Shown: positions 949 to 31,132 of the stretch, piece after piece
Layout: every line of letters begins with the position of its first letter
Position numbering within the stretch: position 1 is the stretch's first letter
Assembly: GCF_000709555.1 (NCBI RefSeq)
Contig: NZ_CP006873.1
Location: 30,001-62,000, forward strand
Source of the DNA: Candidatus Saccharimonadota bacterium
GTDB taxonomy: Bacteria; Bacteroidota; Bacteroidia; Flavobacteriales; Blattabacteriaceae
DNA: 32,000 bases
Reading direction: 5' to 3'
Position numbers and translations under genes: made by a program
Notes under the pieces: generated by a model
Told to the model about the DNA's origin: nothing
Database searches by the model: none
What the model saw: the letters and a program-made list of their open reading frames with translations, nothing else

Positions 949-2568
949 ATGCAAGATCAAAAAATAGATTATTATTTACTTATAGGGACTATAATTTCAA
1001 TCTTAATAGTCTTTTTTTGTTTAAAAAAGCCTTTCAATGAAATTGGGTCGAAAAATATACAGTTATCAAATAATATTAATAAAACTATTTTATTCTCTCC
1101 CAAGAAATATGGGGAAACGATTTTAGAAAATGATCTTATTAGGGTAAAAATATCTAATCTTGGTGGGAATATTAGTGAGATCTTTCTAAAGAAGTATAAG
1201 ACTTATAACGATAAAATCTTACGTTTAGTAAAGACGAAAAGTTTCACTTTTGGTCTAAATCTTATAACTCTTTCGGGAAAAAAAGTTGATAGTAATGATT
1301 GGTTATTTACCCCTAATCTGCAAGAAACTCCCTATCAATACATCTTAACTATGAAAACAATTTTTCCTCCCGGAGGTGAATTAAATTATATTTATTCATT
1401 ACCGAAAGAAAAATCATATGAGGTAAATTTTTCCATTACTAGTCGAGGTCTTTGTTCTTTCGCAATAAATAATGCTATTTTTTTTAATTGTAAACAGAAA
1501 TTAATTGGGTTGGAAAAAAATTACAGTTATGAAAATAATTATGCACAAATGTGTTATTCTTATGGAAAGAATAAAAAAATAAAATCTTTAAGTGAAATAA
1601 GACCAGATCAAAATATAGTAAAAAAAATAAATTGGATAGCTAATAAACAACAATTTTTTACAACTATATTTTTTCCTAAAAATACTTTTCAAACAACGAA
1701 AATTCAATCAAAAAGACTTACATCACCATTTTATATTAAATGGGGTTCTATGTTTTCTCCATTAGAATTAGTTGATAATGAACTTAATTGGAAGGCAAAG
1801 TGGGATTTTGTTCCATTAAAGTATAATCTTCTTAAGAAGTATGGGGATAATTTTGAAGATATTATCCCATTTGGGTGGAGGATTTTTAGATCTATTAATA
1901 AAAACTTTTTTTTAAAACTTTTACAATTTTTAGAAAAAACAAAGTTGAATTATGGAGTAATTATTATATTAATGACTATTATAGTCAAACTTATATTATT
2001 CCCCATTACTTATTGGCAATGTAAATTCATTGCTATAATGAAAATGAGACGTTCTGATATAGAAGAACTGAATGAAAAACTGAAAGATGCAGATCCTTTC
2101 CAAAAGCAACAAGCTACTATAGAATTTTATAAACAAATAGGAATAAATCCAATGTCTGTATTTTTCCCAGCAATTTTCCAAATACCAATTTTTTATGCAC
2201 TGTTTAAATTTTTTCCAAATATTATTAATCTTCGAGGAAAATCATTTCTTTGGGCTTATGATTTAACTTATTACGATTCAGTATTTCATCTTCCTTTGAC
2301 TATACCGATTTATGGAAATCATGTTAGTTTATTTACTTTATTTTATATATTTGCGTTTATATTGTATACAAAGTTTAGTCATATAAATAATTACGGAAAT
2401 AATAATCGGCTTCTGAAATATTTCATGCCAATAATAATGCTTTTATTTATTAATAATTATGCTTCCGGACTTTCATTATATTATTTTATATCAAATATTT
2501 TGAATCTTATTATTCTGTTTCTAATTAAGAAAAAAAAAATAACAAAATATATATTGCGTAATAATTAG
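949..2568 (+). CDS. yidC: Membrane protein insertase YidC
   Basis: 539 aa with an N-terminal TM, a large periplasmic domain and a C-terminal multi-TM 60 kDa-IMP core (..PITYWQ...MKMRRSDIEELNEK...GINPMS..FPAIFQIPIFYALF). It has a short basic tail and an A10 run at 2530-2539 near the 3' end. Confidence 0.9.
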   Translation: MQDQKIDYYLLIGTIISILIVFFCLKKPFNEIGSKNIQLSNNINKTILFSPKKYGETILENDLIRVKISNLGGNISEIFLKKYKTYNDKILRLVKTKSFTFGLNLITLSGKKVDSNDWLFTPNLQETPYQYILTMKTIFPPGGELNYIYSLPKEKSYEVNFSITSRGLCSFAINNAIFFNCKQKLIGLEKNYSYENNYAQMCYSYGKNKKIKSLSEIRPDQNIVKKINWIANKQQFFTTIFFPKNTFQTTKIQSKRLTSPFYIKWGSMFSPLELVDNELNWKAKWDFVPLKYNLLKKYGDNFEDIIPFGWRIFRSINKNFFLKLLQFLEKTKLNYGVIIILMTIIVKLILFPITYWQCKFIAIMKMRRSDIEELNEKLKDADPFQKQQATIEFYKQIGINPMSVFFPAIFQIPIFYALFKFFPNIINLRGKSFLWAYDLTYYDSVFHLPLTIPIYGNHVSLFTLFYIFAFILYTKFSHINNYGNNNRLLKYFMPIIMLLFINNYASGLSLYYFISNILNLIILFLIKKKKITKYILRNN

Positions 2569-2593
2569 GCGTAATAATTAAGGGAATAATATT

Positions 2594-4528
2594 ATGAATC
2601 AAAACAATAAACCCAATAAACCCAATAAACCCAATAAACCCAATAAACCCAATAAACCCAATAAACCCAATAAACTTAATAACCCCAATAACCCCACAGA
2701 TTTGTTTTTTATATCATGTTTCCTGATTATTTTGGGAATATTTATTTTTCAATCTTTTGTCTTTAAAAGACAACAGATTTCTCAAGATTTTTTTTTTCAA
2801 ATCCTTTCTGAAAAAAGAGTTCATAAAATAATTATAACAAATCACTCTAAAGCCAGAATATGGGTTTATAAAACAAATATAAAAAATATAAAAAATCAAA
2901 AAGATCTTTTATATCCGTATTTTGATCATTATGAATTAACTATAAATAATTTTACTTTTTTTTCTCAAAAGATTGAAGAATATAAATATCTCTATAAATT
3001 AAATCTCATTCTTCTTTCAACGAATCAAAACGAATCTAATTTGAGCAAAACTGTCATTGAATCCGGATTATTTTTTTTCCTCTTTGTCATATTCTGGGGA
3101 TTCATATTATCTCGTCTAAACGGAGGTTATGGAAAACATATATTTAATATTGGAAAGTCTAAAGCTAAACTTTTTGACGAAACCGATAATGTTAAAATTA
3201 CTTTCCGAGACGTCGCTGGGTTGGAAGGAGCAAAGGAAGAAATCCAAGAAATTGTTGACTTTCTAAAAAATCCGAATAAATATACTAATTTAGGTGGGAA
3301 AATTCCTAAAGGTGCGCTATTAGTGGGACCTCCAGGAACTGGTAAAACTCTTTTAGCTAAAGCTGTTGCCGGAGAAGCTAAAGTCCCGTTCTTTTCTCTT
3401 TCGGGATCTGATTTCGTAGAAATGTTTGTTGGAGTAGGTGCTTCTCGCGTCAGAGATCTTTTTAACCAAGCTAAGGAAAAATCTCCTTCCATTATTTTTA
3501 TTGATGAAATCGATGCTATAGGACGTTCTAGGGTAACAAATAATATTAATGGAGCTAATGAAGAACGTGAAAATACCCTGAATCAGCTACTAACGGAAAT
3601 GGATGGTTTTGATACCAATACTAATGTTATAGTGATGTCAGCCACCAACCGTTCAGAGATTCTTGATCAGGCACTTTTACGTCCTGGACGTTTTGATAGG
3701 ACTATTTTTATAGATCTTCCAGAACTAAATGAAAGAAAAGAAATTTTTTTAGTACATATTCAAAAATTAAAAATTGCAGCAGATATAGATATTGAATTTT
3801 TATCTCGTCAAACTTCTGGGTTTAGTGGTGCTGATATAGCGAATATATGTAATGAATCTGCTATTATAGCAGCTAGGAAAAACAAATCAAAAATAGAATA
3901 TCAAGATTTTTTAAGTGCTATAGATAGAATTATTGGAGGATTTGAAAAGAAAAATAAAGTAATAAAGTTAGCAGAAAAAGAAAGAATAGCTTATCATGAA
4001 GCTGGGCATGCTGCTATTAGTTGGTTAATTGAACATGCGGCTCCTCTGGTAAAAGTTACTATTGTTCCTAGGGGAAAATCTTTAGGAGCCGCTTGGTATC
4101 TTCCAGAAGAACGTCAATTAACTACTTTTGAACAGATGCAAGATGAAATTTGTGCCATGTTAGGAGGACGGGCAGCTGAACAAGTAATATTGAAAACGAT
4201 TTCGACAGGTGCTTTAAACGATTTAGAACGTGTAACTAAACAAGCACAATCTATGGTAACAATTTTTGGATTAAATAAACGTATTGGGAATATTTCTTAT
4301 TATGACTCTACAGTTCAAACCGAATATGCAAAACCCTATAGTGAAAATACTGCCAGAATTATTGATGAAGAAATTTCTAAAATTATTGAAGAACAATATC
4401 AACGGGCATATAAATTATTAGCTAATAATCGTGTCAAACTTCAACAATTAGCTCAGAAATTACTTGAGAAAGAAGTGATCTTTAAAGAAGATCTTGAGGA
4501 AATTTTTGGAAACAGACCTTTTCCATAA
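2594..4528 (+). CDS. ftsH: ATP-dependent zinc metalloprotease FtsH
   Basis: 644 aa. It shows Walker [14 protein letters not shown], Walker [10 protein letters not shown], the SRH region and the zinc motif HEAGHA. The N-terminus carries an (NKP)n repeat. Confidence 0.97.
2606..2695 (+). repeat. In-frame tandem 9-bp repeat (AATAAACCC) x7 perfect plus 3 degenerate copies, encoding (NKP)7-NKL-NNP-NNP in the FtsH N-terminus
   Basis: Read directly: aataaaccc repeated from 2606 to 2668, then aataaactt aataacccc aataacccc. Confidence 0.95.
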
Positions 4529-8214: not shown

Positions 8215-9028
8215 AATAACTGCTAATCAAATAAAGAATCTTAGGAAAAAAACTGGTTCTGGAATAATGGATTGCAAAAAAGCGCTTATAGAATCTAAGG
8301 GAGATTTTCAAAAAGCTATTGAAATCTTACGAATAAATGGAAAACAAATTGCTCTGAGTCTTTCTCATCGCGAGACTAATGAAGGAGTTCTTATTGCAAA
8401 AGTAAATAGAGAAGAAACACAAGGAGTAATTATCGGATTAAGTTGTGAAACTGATTTCGTAGCCCAAAATAGTGATTTTATTCAATTAGCTAATAAATTT
8501 GCAGAAATAGCGATTTCATGTATAAATAAAGATGATTTATTAAATAAATTTATAGGTAATCTTCCGATTAAGGAAAAACTTATAGAACAAACTGGGGTAA
8601 TAGGAGAAAAAATTGATTTATGTTTTTTTGAAAAACTGTCAGCTTCTTTTGTATCTTTTTATGTTCATAATGGTAATAAAATAGCTAGTTTAGTAGGATT
8701 ATCATCTGCCCCTAAAGGCGTTCAAGAAGTAGCTAAAAATTTAGCTATGCAAGTAGCAGCTATGAATCCCATAGCTTTAAATAAAAAAAAGTTATCTCCT
8801 GAGATCCTTCATAAAGAAAAAGAAATTGCAAAAGAACAATCAAGAAAAGAAGGAAAACCTGAAAATATGATAGAAAAAATTTCTCAAGGAAAATTAAATA
8901 AATTTTTGGCTGAAAATTTACTTCTGGACCAAAAATTTATAAAAAATAATAAATTATCTGTAATAGAATATGTAAAAAAATTTAATTCTAATATTCAAAT
9001 TACTGATTATAAAAGATTATCTTTTTAA
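8207..9028 (+). CDS. tsf: Translation elongation factor Ts
   Basis: 273 aa, ..IKNLRKKTGSGIMDCKKALIES.GDFQKAIEILR.. (UBA-like N-terminus), plus an EF-Ts dimerisation core. Overlaps rpsB by 8 nt. Confidence 0.93.
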   Translation: MYRITANQIKNLRKKTGSGIMDCKKALIESKGDFQKAIEILRINGKQIALSLSHRETNEGVLIAKVNREETQGVIIGLSCETDFVAQNSDFIQLANKFAEIAISCINKDDLLNKFIGNLPIKEKLIEQTGVIGEKIDLCFFEKLSASFVSFYVHNGNKIASLVGLSSAPKGVQEVAKNLAMQVAAMNPIALNKKKLSPEILHKEKEIAKEQSRKEGKPENMIEKISQGKLNKFLAENLLLDQKFIKNNKLSVIEYVKKFNSNIQITDYKRLSF

Positions 9029-9097
9029 GGTGGTAAAATCTTATTTTGTCCTTATAACGGGATCCTGTAAAAGCTCTAATCCTTACTCTTCCTCCTA

Positions 9098-9670
9098 ATG
9101 TTGTCCCATGAACTCTCTCTAATTAAAGAAAGTGCTCAATTGGTTTCCAAAACATTAGGAATGTTAACTTCAGAAATCCAACCAGAGGAATTTATTCGGG
9201 ATCATGGCGGTATTCCAGCTTTTCTAGGACTTTATAATTTTCCCAATACATTATGCTCCAAATGAACAAATAGTTCATGGGATTCCCAATAAAAAACCTT
9301 TATCTGAAGGAGATATTGTGTCTATAGATTGTGGGGTCCTAATGAATGGATATTATGGGTATCATGCTTATACTTTTGCAGTAGGTGAAATATCTGAAGA
9401 CCGAAAAAAACTCATAGAGGTTACTAAAAATTCTCTATCCCGTGGGATATATTCTTGTCGAATAGGGAATAGGACAGGAGAAATTGGATATGCCGAAAAA
9501 ATCTACATGATCTGGGAAAAAATTATTAGAAGGAATGGTCCTAGCTATTGAACCTCAGATAATTAAAAAAGATGTACCGCAGATAATAAGCCTTCAGTTC
9601 ATTTTGAACATAATGTAGCCTAAATGGAAACCCAATTTTACTTTCTACATATAAATTTATATATCAAACG
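9098..9670 (+). pseudogene. map: Methionine aminopeptidase (type I) pseudogene with multiple frameshifts and internal deletions
   Basis: Frame a (9098-9259) reads MLSHELSLIKESAQLVSKTLGMLTSEIQPEEFIRDHGGIPAFLGLYNFPNTLCSK*. Frame b reads PNEQIVHGIPNKKPLSEGDIVSIDCGVLMNGYYGYHAYTFAVGEISEDRKKLIEVTK..GEIGYA, followed by a collapsed middle. Later frames read LEGMVLAIEPQII, ADNKPSVHFEHNVA* and NGNPILLSTYKFIYQ. All are MAP motifs but they sit in at least 4 frames. The track ORF 9318..9551 is one fragment. Confidence 0.85.
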
Positions 9671-9788
9671 CTTAATATTCATTCTGATGAAGAGGAACCT
9701 TTTATTATTAAGGACTATTAAACGGATTCTGCTCTAACTCTAGAATCAGTATCAATTATGAATTGATTTTTAAAATAAAAAAAATATT

Positions 9789-10184
9789 ATGCCAACAATC
9801 CAACAGTTAATAAGAAAGAAAAGAGAAATTTTTAAGAAAAAAAGCAAATCTCCGGCTTTAAATTCTTGTCCTCAACGGAGAGGAGTCTGTATACGAGTTT
9901 ATACTACTACTCCTAAAAAACCTAATTCGGCAATGCGGAAAGTGGCTAGAGTCCGTTTAACTAATGGAAAAGAGGTTAATGCCTATATTCCTGGCGAGGG
10001 TCATAATTTACAAGAACACTCTATCGTTTTAGTTCGTGGTGGAAGAGTTAAAGATTTGCCTGGTGTACGTTATCATATATTACGAGGTGCTATAGATACT
10101 GCTGGAGTCAAAGATAGAAAACAAGCACGTAGTAAATATGGAACTAAATCTGACAAAAATGAATTGAATCTTAAAAAGAAATAA
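9789..10184 (+). CDS. rpsL: 30S ribosomal protein S12
   Basis: 131 aa, [12 protein letters not shown]...[52 protein letters not shown]. Confidence 0.98.
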
Positions 10185-20891: not shown

Positions 20892-21089
20892 ATGAATAAA
20901 ATTAAAATTACGCAAGTCAAAAGTCTTATCAAATGCTCTAAGAATAAAAAAAAAACTATTAAAGCCTTAGGGTTAAGAAAAATTAATCATCAGGTAGAGC
21001 ATCTTTATACTCCTCAAATCCTGGGAATGATACGTAAAGTCAGGCATCTTCTCAAAATAGAAACAGATGAAATTTGTCAAAAATTGTAA
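20892..21089 (+). CDS. rpmD: 50S ribosomal protein L30
   Basis: 65 aa, MNKIKITQVKSLIKCSKNKKKTIKALGLRKINHQVEH..TPQILGMIRKVRHLL. The 3' end overlaps rplO by 23 nt. Confidence 0.93.
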   Translation: MNKIKITQVKSLIKCSKNKKKTIKALGLRKINHQVEHLYTPQILGMIRKVRHLLKIETDEICQKL

Positions 21090-21483
21090 ACGTCTTGGTA
21101 GAGGGCAAGCTTCTGGAAAAGGAGGAACTTCAACACGAGGACATAAAGGAGCAAAATCACGTTCAGGAAATTCTACTAAATTTGGATTTGAAGGTGGTCA
21201 AATGCCTCTACAGCGCCGGATCCCTAAATTTGGATTTAAAAATATTCATCGGAAATGTTATGTTGGTATTAATATAGATGTCTTACAAAATTTAGTAGAT
21301 AAGGGAAAAATTAAAACCGAAGTGAATCCAATAATTTTACAAAAACTCGGTTTAGTATCTAAAAATAAATTAGTCAAAATATTGGGTCGTGGAAAATTAA
21401 CATCTCAAATAAATTTTTCAGCTTTAAAATTTAGCAAAAGTGCTCTAAAAGCAATACAAAAGGTTGGAGGGAAAATTTTTTAG
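21067..21483 (+). CDS. rplO: 50S ribosomal protein L15 (N-terminally short)
   Basis: 138 aa, ..KRLGRGQASGKGGTSTRGHKGAKSRSG.....FEGGQMPLQRRIPKFGF. Confidence 0.94.
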   Translation: MKFVKNCKRLGRGQASGKGGTSTRGHKGAKSRSGNSTKFGFEGGQMPLQRRIPKFGFKNIHRKCYVGINIDVLQNLVDKGKIKTEVNPIILQKLGLVSKNKLVKILGRGKLTSQINFSALKFSKSALKAIQKVGGKIF

Positions 21484-22841
21484 TCCTCTAAAAAATCTTT
21501 GGAAAGTAGAAGAATTGCGTCACAGAATTATTGTTACGATTTTTTTTTTTATTAGTCTACCGTTTAGGATCTTATGTTCCTTTAGTAGGAATTAATTCGA
21601 GAGAGATAGGTGACTTTATAGAAAATCTGAATCCAAGTACCAAGAACATTATGCAGGTTCTTTCTTCATTTACTGGCGGTGCTTTTACCCATGCTTCAGT
21701 CTTAGCTCTTGGAATCATGCCTTATATCTCAGCCTCTATTGTTATCCAACTTATGGAAATTCTTTTTCCATCTCTAAAAAGAGAAGGGAGAAAAAAAATT
21801 AATTATCTTACTAAATGGCTGACTATAGGTCTTTGCCTTATTCAGGCCCCAGCATATATTGCAGCACTTACTACTCAATTCTTACCATTTTCTGATATTC
21901 CTAAAGCTTATCTATTAGATATAACAAGTTCCCAGGGAAAATTGTTTTTCTGGTTAATGTCTATTTTATTACTTACTACAGGAACATTATTTTCTATGTG
22001 GCTTGGAGAAAATATTTCCAATAAAGGAATTGGAAATGGGATTTCATTAATTATTATGATAGGTATCATAGTACGTTTTCCAGAATCCATAGTTATGGAA
22101 ATCCTAAATAGAATGGAAGTAGGTCACGTTGGTCTATTTTTATTATTTTTTGAATTTATAATTTGGTTTTTTATAATACTATTTTGTATATTTGTTATAC
22201 AATCCGTGAGAAAAATTCCTCTTCAATATGTCAAATATATCCAAGCAAAATATATTCAAAATTATTATTTTTCAATAAAACCGTCAATTCGACAATATAT
22301 TCCGTTAAGTGTTCTAACGGTAGGAGTTATGCCTATTATATTGGCCCATGCCATTATGTTATTGCCAGTAATTTTATTTACTCATATTAGAAATGAAGAA
22401 TTCAAACAAATTGTAGAAATTTTCCAAGATCTTTATGGAGTTTGGTATAATATAGTATTTGTTTTTCTTATCATATCCTTTACATTTTTTTATACCACAA
22501 TTACTATTCCTGTAAATAAAATGGCGGATGATCTTAAAACAAATGGAGCATATATTCCAGGCGTCAACCCAGGTCAGGACACGATTGATTATATAGATAA
22601 TATTTTGGATCAAATAACTTTTTTAGGAGCGATTTTACTTGCAATAATTGCCGTATTGCCCGCTATTGTGGTAAGAATAGGAGTTACTAAGGGATTTTCT
22701 TTATTTTACGGAGGTACATCATTATTAATTATTATAGGAGTAGTACTAGACATATCTCAACAAATAAACGCTTATTTGCTTAATATTCATTATGACGGAA
22801 TGATGCAAGGAAAAAGATCTCTGATAACAAAAAATAAATAA
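21464..22841 (+). CDS. secY: Preprotein translocase subunit SecY; the 5' end is frame-split at a T11 homopolymer (intact only if read as T10, or if translation starts at TTG 21531)
   Basis: The body is 21531..22841 (436 aa, ..[15 protein letters not shown]...[14 protein letters not shown]...). The conserved N-terminus [17 protein letters not shown] is encoded at 21488-21538 in a different frame, which opens after the stop at 21446-21448 with only TTG 21464 as a start candidate. The two frames meet at the T11 run 21540-21550. Confidence 0.9.
21540..21550 (+). repeat. T11 homopolymer at the secY frame junction
   Basis: Counted directly: the t at 21540 plus tttttttttt at 21541-21550. Confidence 0.95.
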
Positions 22842-23062
22842 TGTCTAATAAAAAAGAATCTTTTATAGAGCAAGATGCTGAAATTATAGAAGCGTTGCCT
22901 AATGCAATGTTCCGCGCTCGGTTAGAGAACGGACATATTCTTAAAGTTTATATCTCTGGAAAAATTAGAAAGAATTATATCAAAATTCTTCCTGGAGATA
23001 AAGTTAGGATGGAAATTTCTCCTTATGACCTAACTAAAGGTAGAGTTATTTATAGATATTAG
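22841..23062 (+). CDS. infA: Translation initiation factor IF-1
   Basis: 73 aa, ..[62 protein letters not shown]. Its ATG overlaps the secY stop. Confidence 0.97.
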
Positions 23063-23958: not shown

Positions 23959-23979
23959 TTTAAAAAAAAAAAAATAATT

Positions 23980-25568: not shown

Positions 25569-26072
25569 ATGAGGACGATATCTTATACTATGGAAGGTCA
25601 ATATGAACCCATAGAATTACGTTATGGAGGTCCACTGGGAAAAGAAGTGTTCAGAGAAAATGTGAATAGAATACTTTCTCAAGAACTGATTGGCGATAAG
25701 GCATTGCTAGGAATTTCTTTAGCTAAAGTATTAGTCGGGTTTCACGCTTGGACTCTACCCATGCTCCTCAATGGACATCAAGAATTAGCAGGTGATGAGG
25801 TAGCTTCTCAAGATGCATTATTACAAGCTGCTGAAGAACATTTTAAAGGAAGCGAAGGGATGCAACTGAAAGATATTACTTATTTATGCGAAAATTCTCA
25901 CTCTATTGAAGACGTAATGGATCAATTAGTAGGGTACGCGAATTCGATGTGCGTATCCACGACGATTATCTCTCATAGTGAAACCGCTGTAGAACGTATG
26001 GCCAATAATAAACTTTTGCGAATTGAAGCTGCCTCTCAATGGAAAGCTTTCTACTCACCCTATTTACGATGA
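25569..26072 (+). pseudogene. eno: Enolase-derived relic ORF (167 codons, stop-free, about 60% of eno deleted)
   Basis: Collinear enolase motifs all lie in one frame. EGQYEPIELRYGG..GKEV..NVN..I..ELIG corresponds to STGxxEAxELRDGG..GKGV. ALLGISLAK corresponds to ANAILGVSLA. LAGDE corresponds to AVGDEGG. KDIT matches directly. HSIEDVMDQ corresponds to SIEDGLxExDW. TTIISHSETAVE corresponds to [32 protein letters not shown] corresponds to RxAKYNQLLRIEExLGxxAxY. The ORF starts 6 nt after the rpoA stop and ends in an ATGA overlap with rplQ. The regions around the VGDDL metal ligand and the catalytic Lys are missing. Confidence 0.8.
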
Positions 26073-29362: not shown

Positions 29363-31132
29363 GTGAAAAGTACGTTGGAACGGCTAATTCCTGTTCTATA
29401 TGAAGCTGTTACTCATGTAACAGGTATTAAAAATACTTTAAGTCTTGTAATTCAGTATACCAAAAAAGAATTTCCTGGATATATTACTTTAGTTCTTTTA
29501 CCTTTAATGAAAATATTAAAGCAATCTCCTGAAAAAATGGGAAATCAAATAGGAAAATATGTTAAGAAACATTCCCAAATAATTCAATCTTTTCGATATA
29601 TTAATGGTTTTTTGAACTTTGAATGTACTGATTCATATTATAATGAGTTATTAAAAGAACTTTCTAGTAGTAACTTTTTGACAACTACATCTTCAGATAA
29701 GAAGACTCTGATGATAGAATATTCTTCCCCCAATACTAATAAACCTTTACATCTTGGTCATATTAGGAATATGGTATTAGGTCATTCAATATCTGAACTT
29801 TTTAAATCTGTAGGAAAAAAGGTAATAAAAATACAGATTCTCAATGATCGTGGAATACATATTTGTAAATCTATGCTGGCTTGGAACAAATTCTCCGGAG
29901 GAGAAACTCCTGAAAACAGTGGTATGAAAGGTGATCATTTAGTCGGAAAATATTATGTCTGCTTTGAAAAGGCTTATAGGAAGGAAGTGAATGATTTATG
30001 TGCACAAGGTTTTGATGAAAAGAAAGCTAAGAAGGAAGCCCCAATTATGCAAGAAGTTCATCAACTGTTGCGTCTTTGGGAATCTGGAGATGAAAAAATT
30101 TTGGCTTTATGGAAAAAAATGAATAACTGGGTATACCAAGGGTTTAAAAAAACCTATAGACAATTAGATATTAATTTTGACTATACTCAGTATGAGAGTA
30201 ATACTTACTTATTAGGGAAAAGAGTTATTGAAGAAGGAATAAAAAAAAAGGTCTTCTTTTATAAAGAAGACGGTTCAGTCTGGGTAGATCTTACTAAGGA
30301 GGGTCTAGATGAAAAGTTGCTTTTGCGTGCAAATGGAACAGCGGTGTACCTTACACAAGATCTTGGAACAACTATAGAACGTTTTGAAAAATATCCTATA
30401 GATTCTCTTATATTTCTCGTTGGAGAAGAACAAAAGTATCATTTTCGTGCGCTTTTTATCATCCTAAAGAAACTCGGATATGTCTGGGCAGATAAGCTTT
30501 TCCATCTTTCATATGGCATGGTAGAACTCCCTTCAGGCAAAATGAAGTCTAGAGAAGGCATTGTAGTAGATGCAGATGATCTGTTGGAACAGATGAACCA
30601 AGTGGCTAAAAAAATTACAAAAGAACTAGGAAAAGTCCATGATTATTCATCTACTGACTTAAAAACTCTAAGTTTAGGCGCATTGAAATACCATCTCCTA
30701 AAAGTCGATCCTAAAAAACGTATTATGTTTAATCCTGAAACTTCAGTAGATTTTAAAGGAAATACAGGGACTTACATCCAGTATACCTATTCTCGTATTC
30801 GCTCTTTAGAGAGAAAGGCTATGGCGATAGCATCGAAAAATATTCACCCGTATTCTCCAAGTGAAGAGGAAAAATATTTATTAAAAATCCTAGAACAATA
30901 CCCTTCTTTAGTGAAAAGTTCTGCGGAAAATTTTAGTCCAGCTATATTGGCTAATTACATTTATGAACTAGCTAAATCTTTTAACGATTTTTACCAAAAC
31001 GTCAGTGTAAAAATTATTCAAGATAAAAATCTGGATCAGGCTATTTTCCGACTAAAACTTTCTATTTTGTGTGGAGAAGTTTTAAAATTAGGCCTGAAAC
31101 TTTTGGGAATCAATATGCCAGAACGTATGTAG
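29363..31132 (+). CDS. argS: Arginine--tRNA ligase (GTG start)
   Basis: 589 aa, ..IEYSSPNTNKPLHLGHIRN..LG......LSYGMV.L..GKMKSREG..V.....ALKYHLLK and a C-terminal DALR anticodon-binding domain ending ..NMPERM. Confidence 0.95.
   Translation: MKSTLERLIPVLYEAVTHVTGIKNTLSLVIQYTKKEFPGYITLVLLPLMKILKQSPEKMGNQIGKYVKKHSQIIQSFRYINGFLNFECTDSYYNELLKELSSSNFLTTTSSDKKTLMIEYSSPNTNKPLHLGHIRNMVLGHSISELFKSVGKKVIKIQILNDRGIHICKSMLAWNKFSGGETPENSGMKGDHLVGKYYVCFEKAYRKEVNDLCAQGFDEKKAKKEAPIMQEVHQLLRLWESGDEKILALWKKMNNWVYQGFKKTYRQLDINFDYTQYESNTYLLGKRVIEEGIKKKVFFYKEDGSVWVDLTKEGLDEKLLLRANGTAVYLTQDLGTTIERFEKYPIDSLIFLVGEEQKYHFRALFIILKKLGYVWADKLFHLSYGMVELPSGKMKSREGIVVDADDLLEQMNQVAKKITKELGKVHDYSSTDLKTLSLGALKYHLLKVDPKKRIMFNPETSVDFKGNTGTYIQYTYSRIRSLERKAMAIASKNIHPYSPSEEEKYLLKILEQYPSLVKSSAENFSPAILANYIYELAKSFNDFYQNVSVKIIQDKNLDQAIFRLKLSILCGEVLKLGLKLLGINMPERM

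Follow-up and report, generated by a model that had tools for sequence, protein, structure and literature searches.

In the AT-rich, vertically inherited insect symbionts Buchnera and Blochmannia, a class of genes has been described that carry a single-base insertion or deletion within an A or T run of at least 9-10 nucleotides (nt) and are otherwise intact (Tamas et al. 2008 and Wernegreen et al. 2010, as relayed in PMC5009743 and PMC3017870). In these accounts, runs of at least nine A or T give rise to transcripts of heterogeneous length, 12-50% of the transcripts of such frameshifted genes are in frame, the lesion is common to several species, and the substitutions are not pseudogene-like (PMC5009743; PMC3017870). 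The gene considered here is secY of Ca. Walczuchella monophlebidarum LLAX (hereafter LLAX), the symbiont of the scale insect Llaveia axin axin; it lies in a 32,000-nt stretch of DNA (positions 30,001 to 62,000 of contig NZ_CP006873.1, forward strand), which is called the window and whose own numbering is used throughout. As far as sequence comparison goes, LLAX secY matches the Buchnera/Blochmannia class in lesion type, genomic setting and substitution pattern: a single T has been added to an ancestral T10 tract within the first transmembrane segment (TM1), and the gene is otherwise in frame. Tentatively, the insertion of this T is placed on the stem shared by LLAX and the symbionts referred to below as the Drosicha type, and secY may have been kept in LLAX through RNA-polymerase slippage on the run.

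On the other hand, LLAX belongs to Bacteroidota and not, like Buchnera and Blochmannia, to Gammaproteobacteria, its run is poly(T) on the coding strand, and the case is known here from sequence alone. Restoring the frame of LLAX secY requires a change of -1 or +2 and not the favoured +1, a point absent from a first-pass annotation of the window, and the shift itself has created a plausible alternative start. In addition, T11 is common to six Drosicha-type assemblies, yet secY is degraded there, and LLAX is the sole genome compared in which T11 occurs in an intact gene. Since secY is dead in the sister lineage with the same lesion, cross-species conservation alone does not show maintenance.

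Three further systems are close enough to be compared. Within the genus, carB, trpC and mnmE have been listed as candidates for poly(A/T) slippage, a list from which secY is absent (Choi et al. 2025, PMC12188211); these candidates share with LLAX secY the genus, partly the genome and the proposed mechanism, and LLAX secY adds lineage-specific selection evidence. The 2025 screen took only genes predicted 'fragmented' (PMC12188211), and the upstream piece of secY, 43 amino acids (aa) long, was probably not called as a gene there. The published list of Walczuchella slippage genes misses at least secY; the case is unnamed in both Walczuchella papers (PMC3971599, PMC12188211), and the general idea is stated in both. 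The second system is the erosion of genes through homopolymer indels (PMC3017870, PMC5574713), which is what the Drosicha type resembles, with T11 followed by an 8-nt deletion, a 7-nt insertion and five stops; unlike such genes, LLAX secY has no second lesion and its substitutions are constrained. The third is the oligo(A) frameshift of chloroplast atpB (PMC8254509), likewise a homopolymer frameshift in an essential membrane-complex gene of a reduced genome that is tolerated via recoding. In atpB, ribosomal correction was shown by experiment, whereas in LLAX secY the contributions of ribosome and polymerase are indistinguishable and the usual +1 stimulators are absent.

As written, LLAX secY is not one uninterrupted frame. 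The T11 run, which is bordered by A on either side, splits it into open reading frames (ORFs) of 43 and 436 aa (Table 1), and the downstream frame is open from TTG 21531 to 22841. The first-pass annotation had placed the junction of the two frames exactly at 21540-21550, the end of the upstream frame at 21593-21595 and a 20-nt overlap between TTG 21464 and rplO, and on re-reading of the ORFs every one of its coordinates was correct. Its view that a T10 reading would be continuous also holds, as this reading gives a single ORF of 458 aa; T13 gives 459 aa, and T12 leads to immediate stops. The T10-corrected SecY scores 302.3 bits against the NCBIfam equivalog TIGR00967, above the cut-off of 253.6, and aligns from residue 9, unbroken through the junction, to the SecY structures 3DL8 (Aquifex) and 3DIN (Thermotoga). 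A peptide across the junction of the frame-restored full-length protein would be IIVTIFFLLVYR. Because both flanks of the tract are homologous to the N-terminus and TM1 of SecY, and T10 is in frame at this very site in four related genomes, the split is, judged by homology, not a chance pattern. The start annotated by NCBI for the intact orthologue P0002 corresponds to TTG 21464. The 396-aa protein P0001, for which PF00344 is on record, would be without TM1 entirely and is a choice of the gene caller only; LLAX secY should be annotated as a homopolymer frameshift candidate, and database proteins of 396 or 436 aa are misleading. A compensating indel near the tract was considered, and none is present in LLAX.

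The length of the tract was then compared across relatives, which were collected via the identical IF-1 protein encoded downstream of secY and via relatives of SecY and IF-1. The best relative of the SecY fragment of the window is SecY of 'Candidatus Walczuchella endosymbiont of Icerya purchasi', and a look-up with the L36 protein returned the same genomes and no additional lineage. In ICPU (L001), CRMU (L009), CRGE (L010) and ICSE (L011), which make up the Icerya/Crypticerya clade (hereafter the T10 clade), the tract is T10 and in frame, whereas the Drosicha-type loci L002-L007, namely five Logan assemblies of different sequencing runs and the DRPI genome CP170567, carry T11 as in the window. 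The DRPI genome was assembled from PCR-free Illumina reads, polished with Pilon and covered 1,226-fold, and the same laboratory and pipeline produced CRMU, CRGE, ICSE and the 2025 study's own ICPU assembly; L001, the ICPU locus used here, belongs to a different assembly, OZ034981. Since one laboratory and pipeline yields both T10 and T11, the length difference is not a platform effect. The extra T thus appears to be inherited, and the homopolymer sequencing error that the first-pass annotation had offered as one explanation is very unlikely.

Sequence distances in the flanking genes group LLAX and the Drosicha type against ICPU, CRMU, CRGE and ICSE, and therefore one insertion on the shared LLAX/Drosicha-type stem suffices. 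The tract is still T11 in all six Drosicha-type assemblies although secY is dead and the tract unconstrained there, and the length of the other runs of at least 7 nt in the region almost never differs between genomes; frequent parallel length change is therefore disfavoured. From this we infer a single origin of the insertion.

As a side observation, one further lineage, L012 (Logan ERR10687444), is Walczuchella-like, 95-97% identical to both clades, and stands outside the seven published genomes. Its contig begins within the 3' end of secY, 99 nt ahead of infA, and does not cover the 5' end.

With lesions scored against the intact ICPU gene, the fate of secY in the Drosicha type is plain. Common to all loci are an 8-nt deletion, which lies 45 nt past the tract, and a TAA at codon 233; individual lineages carry a 7-nt insertion and stops at codons 98, 143, 272 and 341, so that the disabling lesions in this lineage amount to seven; several in-frame deletions are present besides. 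The codon after the TTG that corresponds to TTG 21531 is TAA in most of these loci. The 8-nt deletion was also considered as a restorer of the frame and rejected, because +1 and -8 do not sum to a multiple of three and the deletion lies past the stop of the upstream frame. In ICSE (L011, 2482-4003, 1,522 nt), where no gene is called, the T10 tract is intact, and the gene contains four frameshifting indels, six in-frame stops and insertions of 99 and 123 nt; as ICSE keeps T10, its loss of secY is independent of that in the Drosicha type. More than one disabling lesion together with neutral substitutions, as in a decaying pseudogene, was found in L002-L007 and L011, and not in LLAX. The statement of the first-pass annotation that secY is essential consequently fails in this genus. 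According to the seven-genome comparison of 2025, DRCO, DRPI and ICSE have lost genes for secretion and trafficking, and in the other genomes such genes are pseudogenized (PMC12188211).

Two observations on the relatives may be recorded here. In CRMU and CRGE (L009 and L010, 4001-5587), secY and infA are fused into one ORF of 526-528 aa (P0123, P0125), which is also in PMC12188211. In the Drosicha-type lineage (L002-L007), the substitutions appear rich in A:T to C:G transversions and are mostly nonsynonymous even in ribosomal protein genes, a pattern that fits a genome-wide collapse of selection or repair.

The evidence that LLAX secY has not followed the same path comes from the remaining 433 codons, which carry no lesion in addition to T11 upstream of them. 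If the LLAX branch were neutral, the lesion density of the sister lineage would predict 2.8-4.1 additional lesions (P(0)=0.06-0.017), and none was observed. Codon changes were polarised with the T10 clade as outgroup. On the LLAX branch, the ratio of nonsynonymous to synonymous changes (N:S) is 7:11 in secY and 10:30 in 12 flanking essential genes; the corresponding ratios are 12:1 and 15:13 on the Drosicha-type stem, and 24:4 and 14:4 within the Drosicha type. The LLAX count thus departs from the neutral expectation of 0.777 nonsynonymous (binomial p=4.4e-4), is not distinguishable from that of the flanking genes on the same branch (Fisher p=0.35), and differs from that of Drosicha-type secY (36N:5S; p=2.4e-4); the numbers behind all these tests are small, and the Drosicha-type lineage is N-heavy even in its ribosomal protein genes. 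The nonsynonymous rate of secY exceeds that of the flanks by a factor of 2.8 in LLAX and of 2.1 in the T10 clade, in which the gene is intact. These figures describe LLAX secY as a somewhat relaxed yet apparently constrained gene, provided that T11 was present throughout the branch, and they speak for the time since the lesion only if T11 had a single origin on the shared stem. Because of this purifying selection on the LLAX branch, a working SecY is probably still made in LLAX, and the inherited frameshift is probably tolerated there through recoding or re-initiation. That secY is kept open only for coupling to infA was considered and rejected: such coupling would not yield a low N:S, and infA is intact beside the dead secY of the Drosicha type.

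Among the routes by which SecY might be produced, transcriptional slippage is slightly preferred. Under this reading, one T would have been inserted into the in-frame T10 within TM1 before LLAX split from the Drosicha-type symbionts, after which the gene decayed in the latter, and in LLAX SecY would still be produced from the frameshifted gene, with its remaining codons intact and under purifying selection. RNA polymerase would slip on the run, with A11 on the template and U11 in the RNA, and generate a mixed pool of transcripts, from which a minority with U10 or U13 would be translated from TTG 21464 into full-length SecY, identical to the ancestral protein (U10) or with one extra Phe (U13). 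Both the lesion, a single indel within a run of the length noted above, and the N:S of the frameshifted gene are those expected of such a case. The first-pass annotation had placed slippage beside N-terminal truncation, and the sequence cannot say which of the two routes makes the product; slippage is put first, though with a confidence that stays below even.

Several observations weigh against it. Slippage at homopolymers is mostly +1, whereas the frame here needs -1 or +2 (PMC5574713); in Buchnera, 151 of 157 insertions lay within runs, compared with only 16 of 57 deletions, and a restored frame was not seen in that slippage study (PMC5574713). Given this +1 bias, the rescued fraction may be small. 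A full-length slippage product should also keep the N-terminus constrained, and this is not the pattern found. The T11 path shows 4-5 nonsynonymous changes in the 25 codons that precede the tract, compared with 11 in the other 403 (per-codon p=0.001-0.008); of the former, T8P, I12L and N20H fall on the shared stem, V3G and perhaps C13W on the LLAX branch. The state of the gene itself points the same way. On the LLAX branch, secY has accumulated nucleotide changes at about twice the density seen in the flanks (a factor of 1.1-1.2 in T10 lineages), and LLAX SecY deviates at 9 of 112 strongly conserved columns, compared with 4-5 in its T10 relatives, including the loss of the G-E-S residues of a conserved loop; SecY of Bostrichicola, a symbiont with a tiny genome, likewise deviates at 9 of the 112. 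Moreover, secY is dispensable in some Walczuchella, having been lost in the Drosicha type and in ICSE, and a parallel, recent origin of T11 in LLAX, if that is what happened, would make the selection signal older than the lesion.

The last of these points leads to one of the two stronger alternatives, which is nonetheless unlikely: that LLAX secY is a young, nonfunctional pseudogene, in which either T11 is recent and parallel or constraint has lately been lost, so that the low N:S predates inactivation. It would fit the loss of secY at least twice in the genus, the loss or pseudogenization of secretion genes in all seven genomes (PMC12188211), the excess of conserved-column deviations and the denser changes of LLAX secY, and the standing of homopolymer indels as the classic first step of gene erosion (PMC3017870); by one of the two estimates, finding no further lesion would have a probability of 0.06. 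Against this, T11 is common to a monophyletic group, and the tract has been stable under neutrality in six assemblies. The LLAX count of 7N:11S departs strongly from neutrality (p=4e-4) and resembles that of the flanking essential genes, and zero extra stops or frameshifts in the 433 codons stand against the seven disabling lesions of the sister lineage. Finally, the relative nonsynonymous rate of LLAX is to be read beside the elevated rate that the T10 clade shows with an intact gene.

A serious rival, though likewise unlikely, is that the frameshift is real and old and that the functional protein now begins at the out-of-frame TTG 21531. The native tail of 25 residues would be lost, the first third of TM1 would be rebuilt from the Phe codons of the T run, and initiation would fall to ribosomes ending at the rplO stop 48 nt upstream, or would be de novo. 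TTG 21531 is the only start that keeps TM1. The first-pass annotation had presented it as the only start of the downstream frame and as one that removes part of TM1; the former stands for the canonical starts before ATG 21651, but the latter is too simple, as the product would retain 15 of about 21 TM1 residues, with IIVTIFF converted to MLRFFF. The new terminus has a basic residue followed by a hydrophobic stretch, whose best 19-aa window reaches a mean Kyte-Doolittle hydropathy of 1.45, compared with 1.91 in the native protein. In addition, the native start is also a TTG, and its overlap with the last 20 nt of rplO suggests translational coupling. The disfavoured -1 or +2 slippage would be dispensed with, and the codons for which purifying selection is documented all lie downstream of the tract. 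Per codon, change on the T11 path has been 7-9 times faster in the 25 upstream codons than elsewhere in the gene, an excess not seen in the T10 clade, where both parts evolve equally fast; as T8P, I12L and N20H are common to the Drosicha type, they date to the stem. This pattern hints that the native N-terminus lost constraint when T11 arose, which would favour the TTG 21531 route and would also support an old, single origin of T11. However, the contrast between the clades was drawn post hoc and is fragile (p=0.02, rising to 0.16 with Trp13 taken as ancestral), and the tail to be lost includes the ELR.R motif, which every SecY compared retains. Initiation at TTG 21531 is a proposal drawn from the DNA letters, the context of this codon (cacagaatta) is less A-rich than that of TTG 21464 (atacaaaagg), where A-rich leaders favour initiation in Bacteroidota, and ribosomes on the upstream frame would traverse the site. 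A bolder form of the same idea, rated lower still and best called doubtful, would have one insertion meet two fates: loss of secY in the Drosicha lineage and, in the Llaveia lineage, a selected translocon re-headed at TTG 21531, with the poly-T encoding the start of TM1 (MLRFFF) and the N-terminal tail abandoned.

Codon 13 of secY (21500-21502) is TGG (Trp) in LLAX and in the DRPI-type loci (L003, L005), Trp being conserved in other Flavobacteriia. Their closest relatives and the T10 clade have TGT (Cys) instead; the T/G change at this single site is recurrent.

It is highly improbable that the LLAX chromosome, or a large share of its copies, carries T10 and that T11 is a consensus error of the hybrid assembly of 2014. 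Symbionts are polyploid, so T10 and T11 copies could coexist. The assembly was made with Velvet and Phrap from Illumina HiSeq and 454 reads (PMC3971599), the latter prone to homopolymer miscalls; yet 61.6 million Illumina read pairs also went into it (PMC3971599), and an error would have had to arrive by chance at exactly the T11 that six independent Illumina assemblies show for the sister clade. The closest genomes accordingly do not show the in-frame length, all six being T11. Within the compared part of the window (about 18.8-26.9 kb), the remaining 7-10 nt runs in coding genes keep the reading frame and match those of the relatives.

Least credible of all is ribosomal +1 frameshifting, in which tRNA-Phe would move from UUU to the overlapping UUU on the U11 of an unedited transcript: efficient +1 sites normally require a pause at a stop or rare codon or a stimulator, but the next zero-frame codon after the run is AUU, no GGAGG-like Shine-Dalgarno element lies in the 20 nt upstream, so that the signals of prfB-type programmed frameshifting are missing, and the slipperiest move on a U run is -1, here into the dead frame in which a T12 reading stops at once. 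The run does permit perfect re-pairing of tRNA-Phe in the +1 frame, and translational correction of homopolymer frameshifts exists in organelles (PMC8254509) and has been discussed for endosymbionts (PMC5009743).

If SecY is still made in LLAX, a core membrane-protein machine outside Gammaproteobacteria would rely on error-prone decoding of a frameshifted gene. The sister lineage, in which the same lesion ended in gene death, provides a natural control for the question of when a buffered frameshift is kept and when it is the first step of loss, and the pairing could tell if a Sec channel of its own is dispensable for a symbiont of about 300 kb.

Table 1. Features of the secY region of LLAX, in window coordinates.
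Feature	Position	Strand	Description
rplO (ribosomal protein L15)	21067..21483	+	ORF; TIGR01071 match, 146 bits
Native secY start TTG 21464 and first 25 codons, upstream frame	21464..21539	+	Aligns to residues 5-25 of Aquifex SecY 3DL8
TTG, downstream frame	21531..21533	+	Sole canonical start ahead of ATG 21651; would give a 436-aa SecY
T11 run	21540..21550	+	Ancestral T10 (ATT TTT TTT TTA = Ile-Phe-Phe-Leu of TM1) plus one inserted T
Remainder of secY (codons 29-458 and stop), downstream frame	21551..22841	+	No further stop or frameshift
TAA closing the upstream frame (43-aa product)	21593..21595	+	ORF reading
ATG	21651..21653	+	Automatic gene call in public protein collection; 396-aa product P0001
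infA (IF-1)	22841..23062	+	ATG shares one base with the secY stop (TAATG, 22839-22843)

The window and all related loci spanning the region share the gene order rplO-secY-infA. The LLAX genome paper of 2014 gives secA, secE, secY and yidC as present, secY without qualification, and its authors tallied 27 pseudogenes (PMC3971599). In the window, yidC (539 aa) and ftsH (644 aa) are intact (949-4528), and this stretch contains two in-frame runs, A10 (2530-2539) and T10 (2788-2797). In a protein search with YidC, the sole close match was LLAX's own YidC, and the next was 52% identical; no other Walczuchella YidC stood among the best 120 matches, where fragments would score below those listed. Exact-protein look-ups with S9 and S12, aimed at the yidC and ftsH regions of the relatives, gave no match. 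Among the Walczuchella sequenced so far, an intact insertase may be confined to LLAX.

Elsewhere in the window, the longest homopolymer is A13 at 23962-23974, in the rpsK-rpsD spacer; the run is A8 in the Drosicha-type loci and absent from the T10 clade. Between rpoA and rplQ, an ORF of 167 aa (25569-26072) without a Pfam or NCBIfam match overlaps the rplQ ORF, and its counterpart is 153-157 aa in the Drosicha-type loci, with none called in the T10-clade loci. Finally, the tsf-rpsL interval of 760 nt (9028-9789) contains a single ORF of 77 aa (9318-9551) that matches part of Peptidase_M24 and looks like a remnant of the methionine aminopeptidase gene map.

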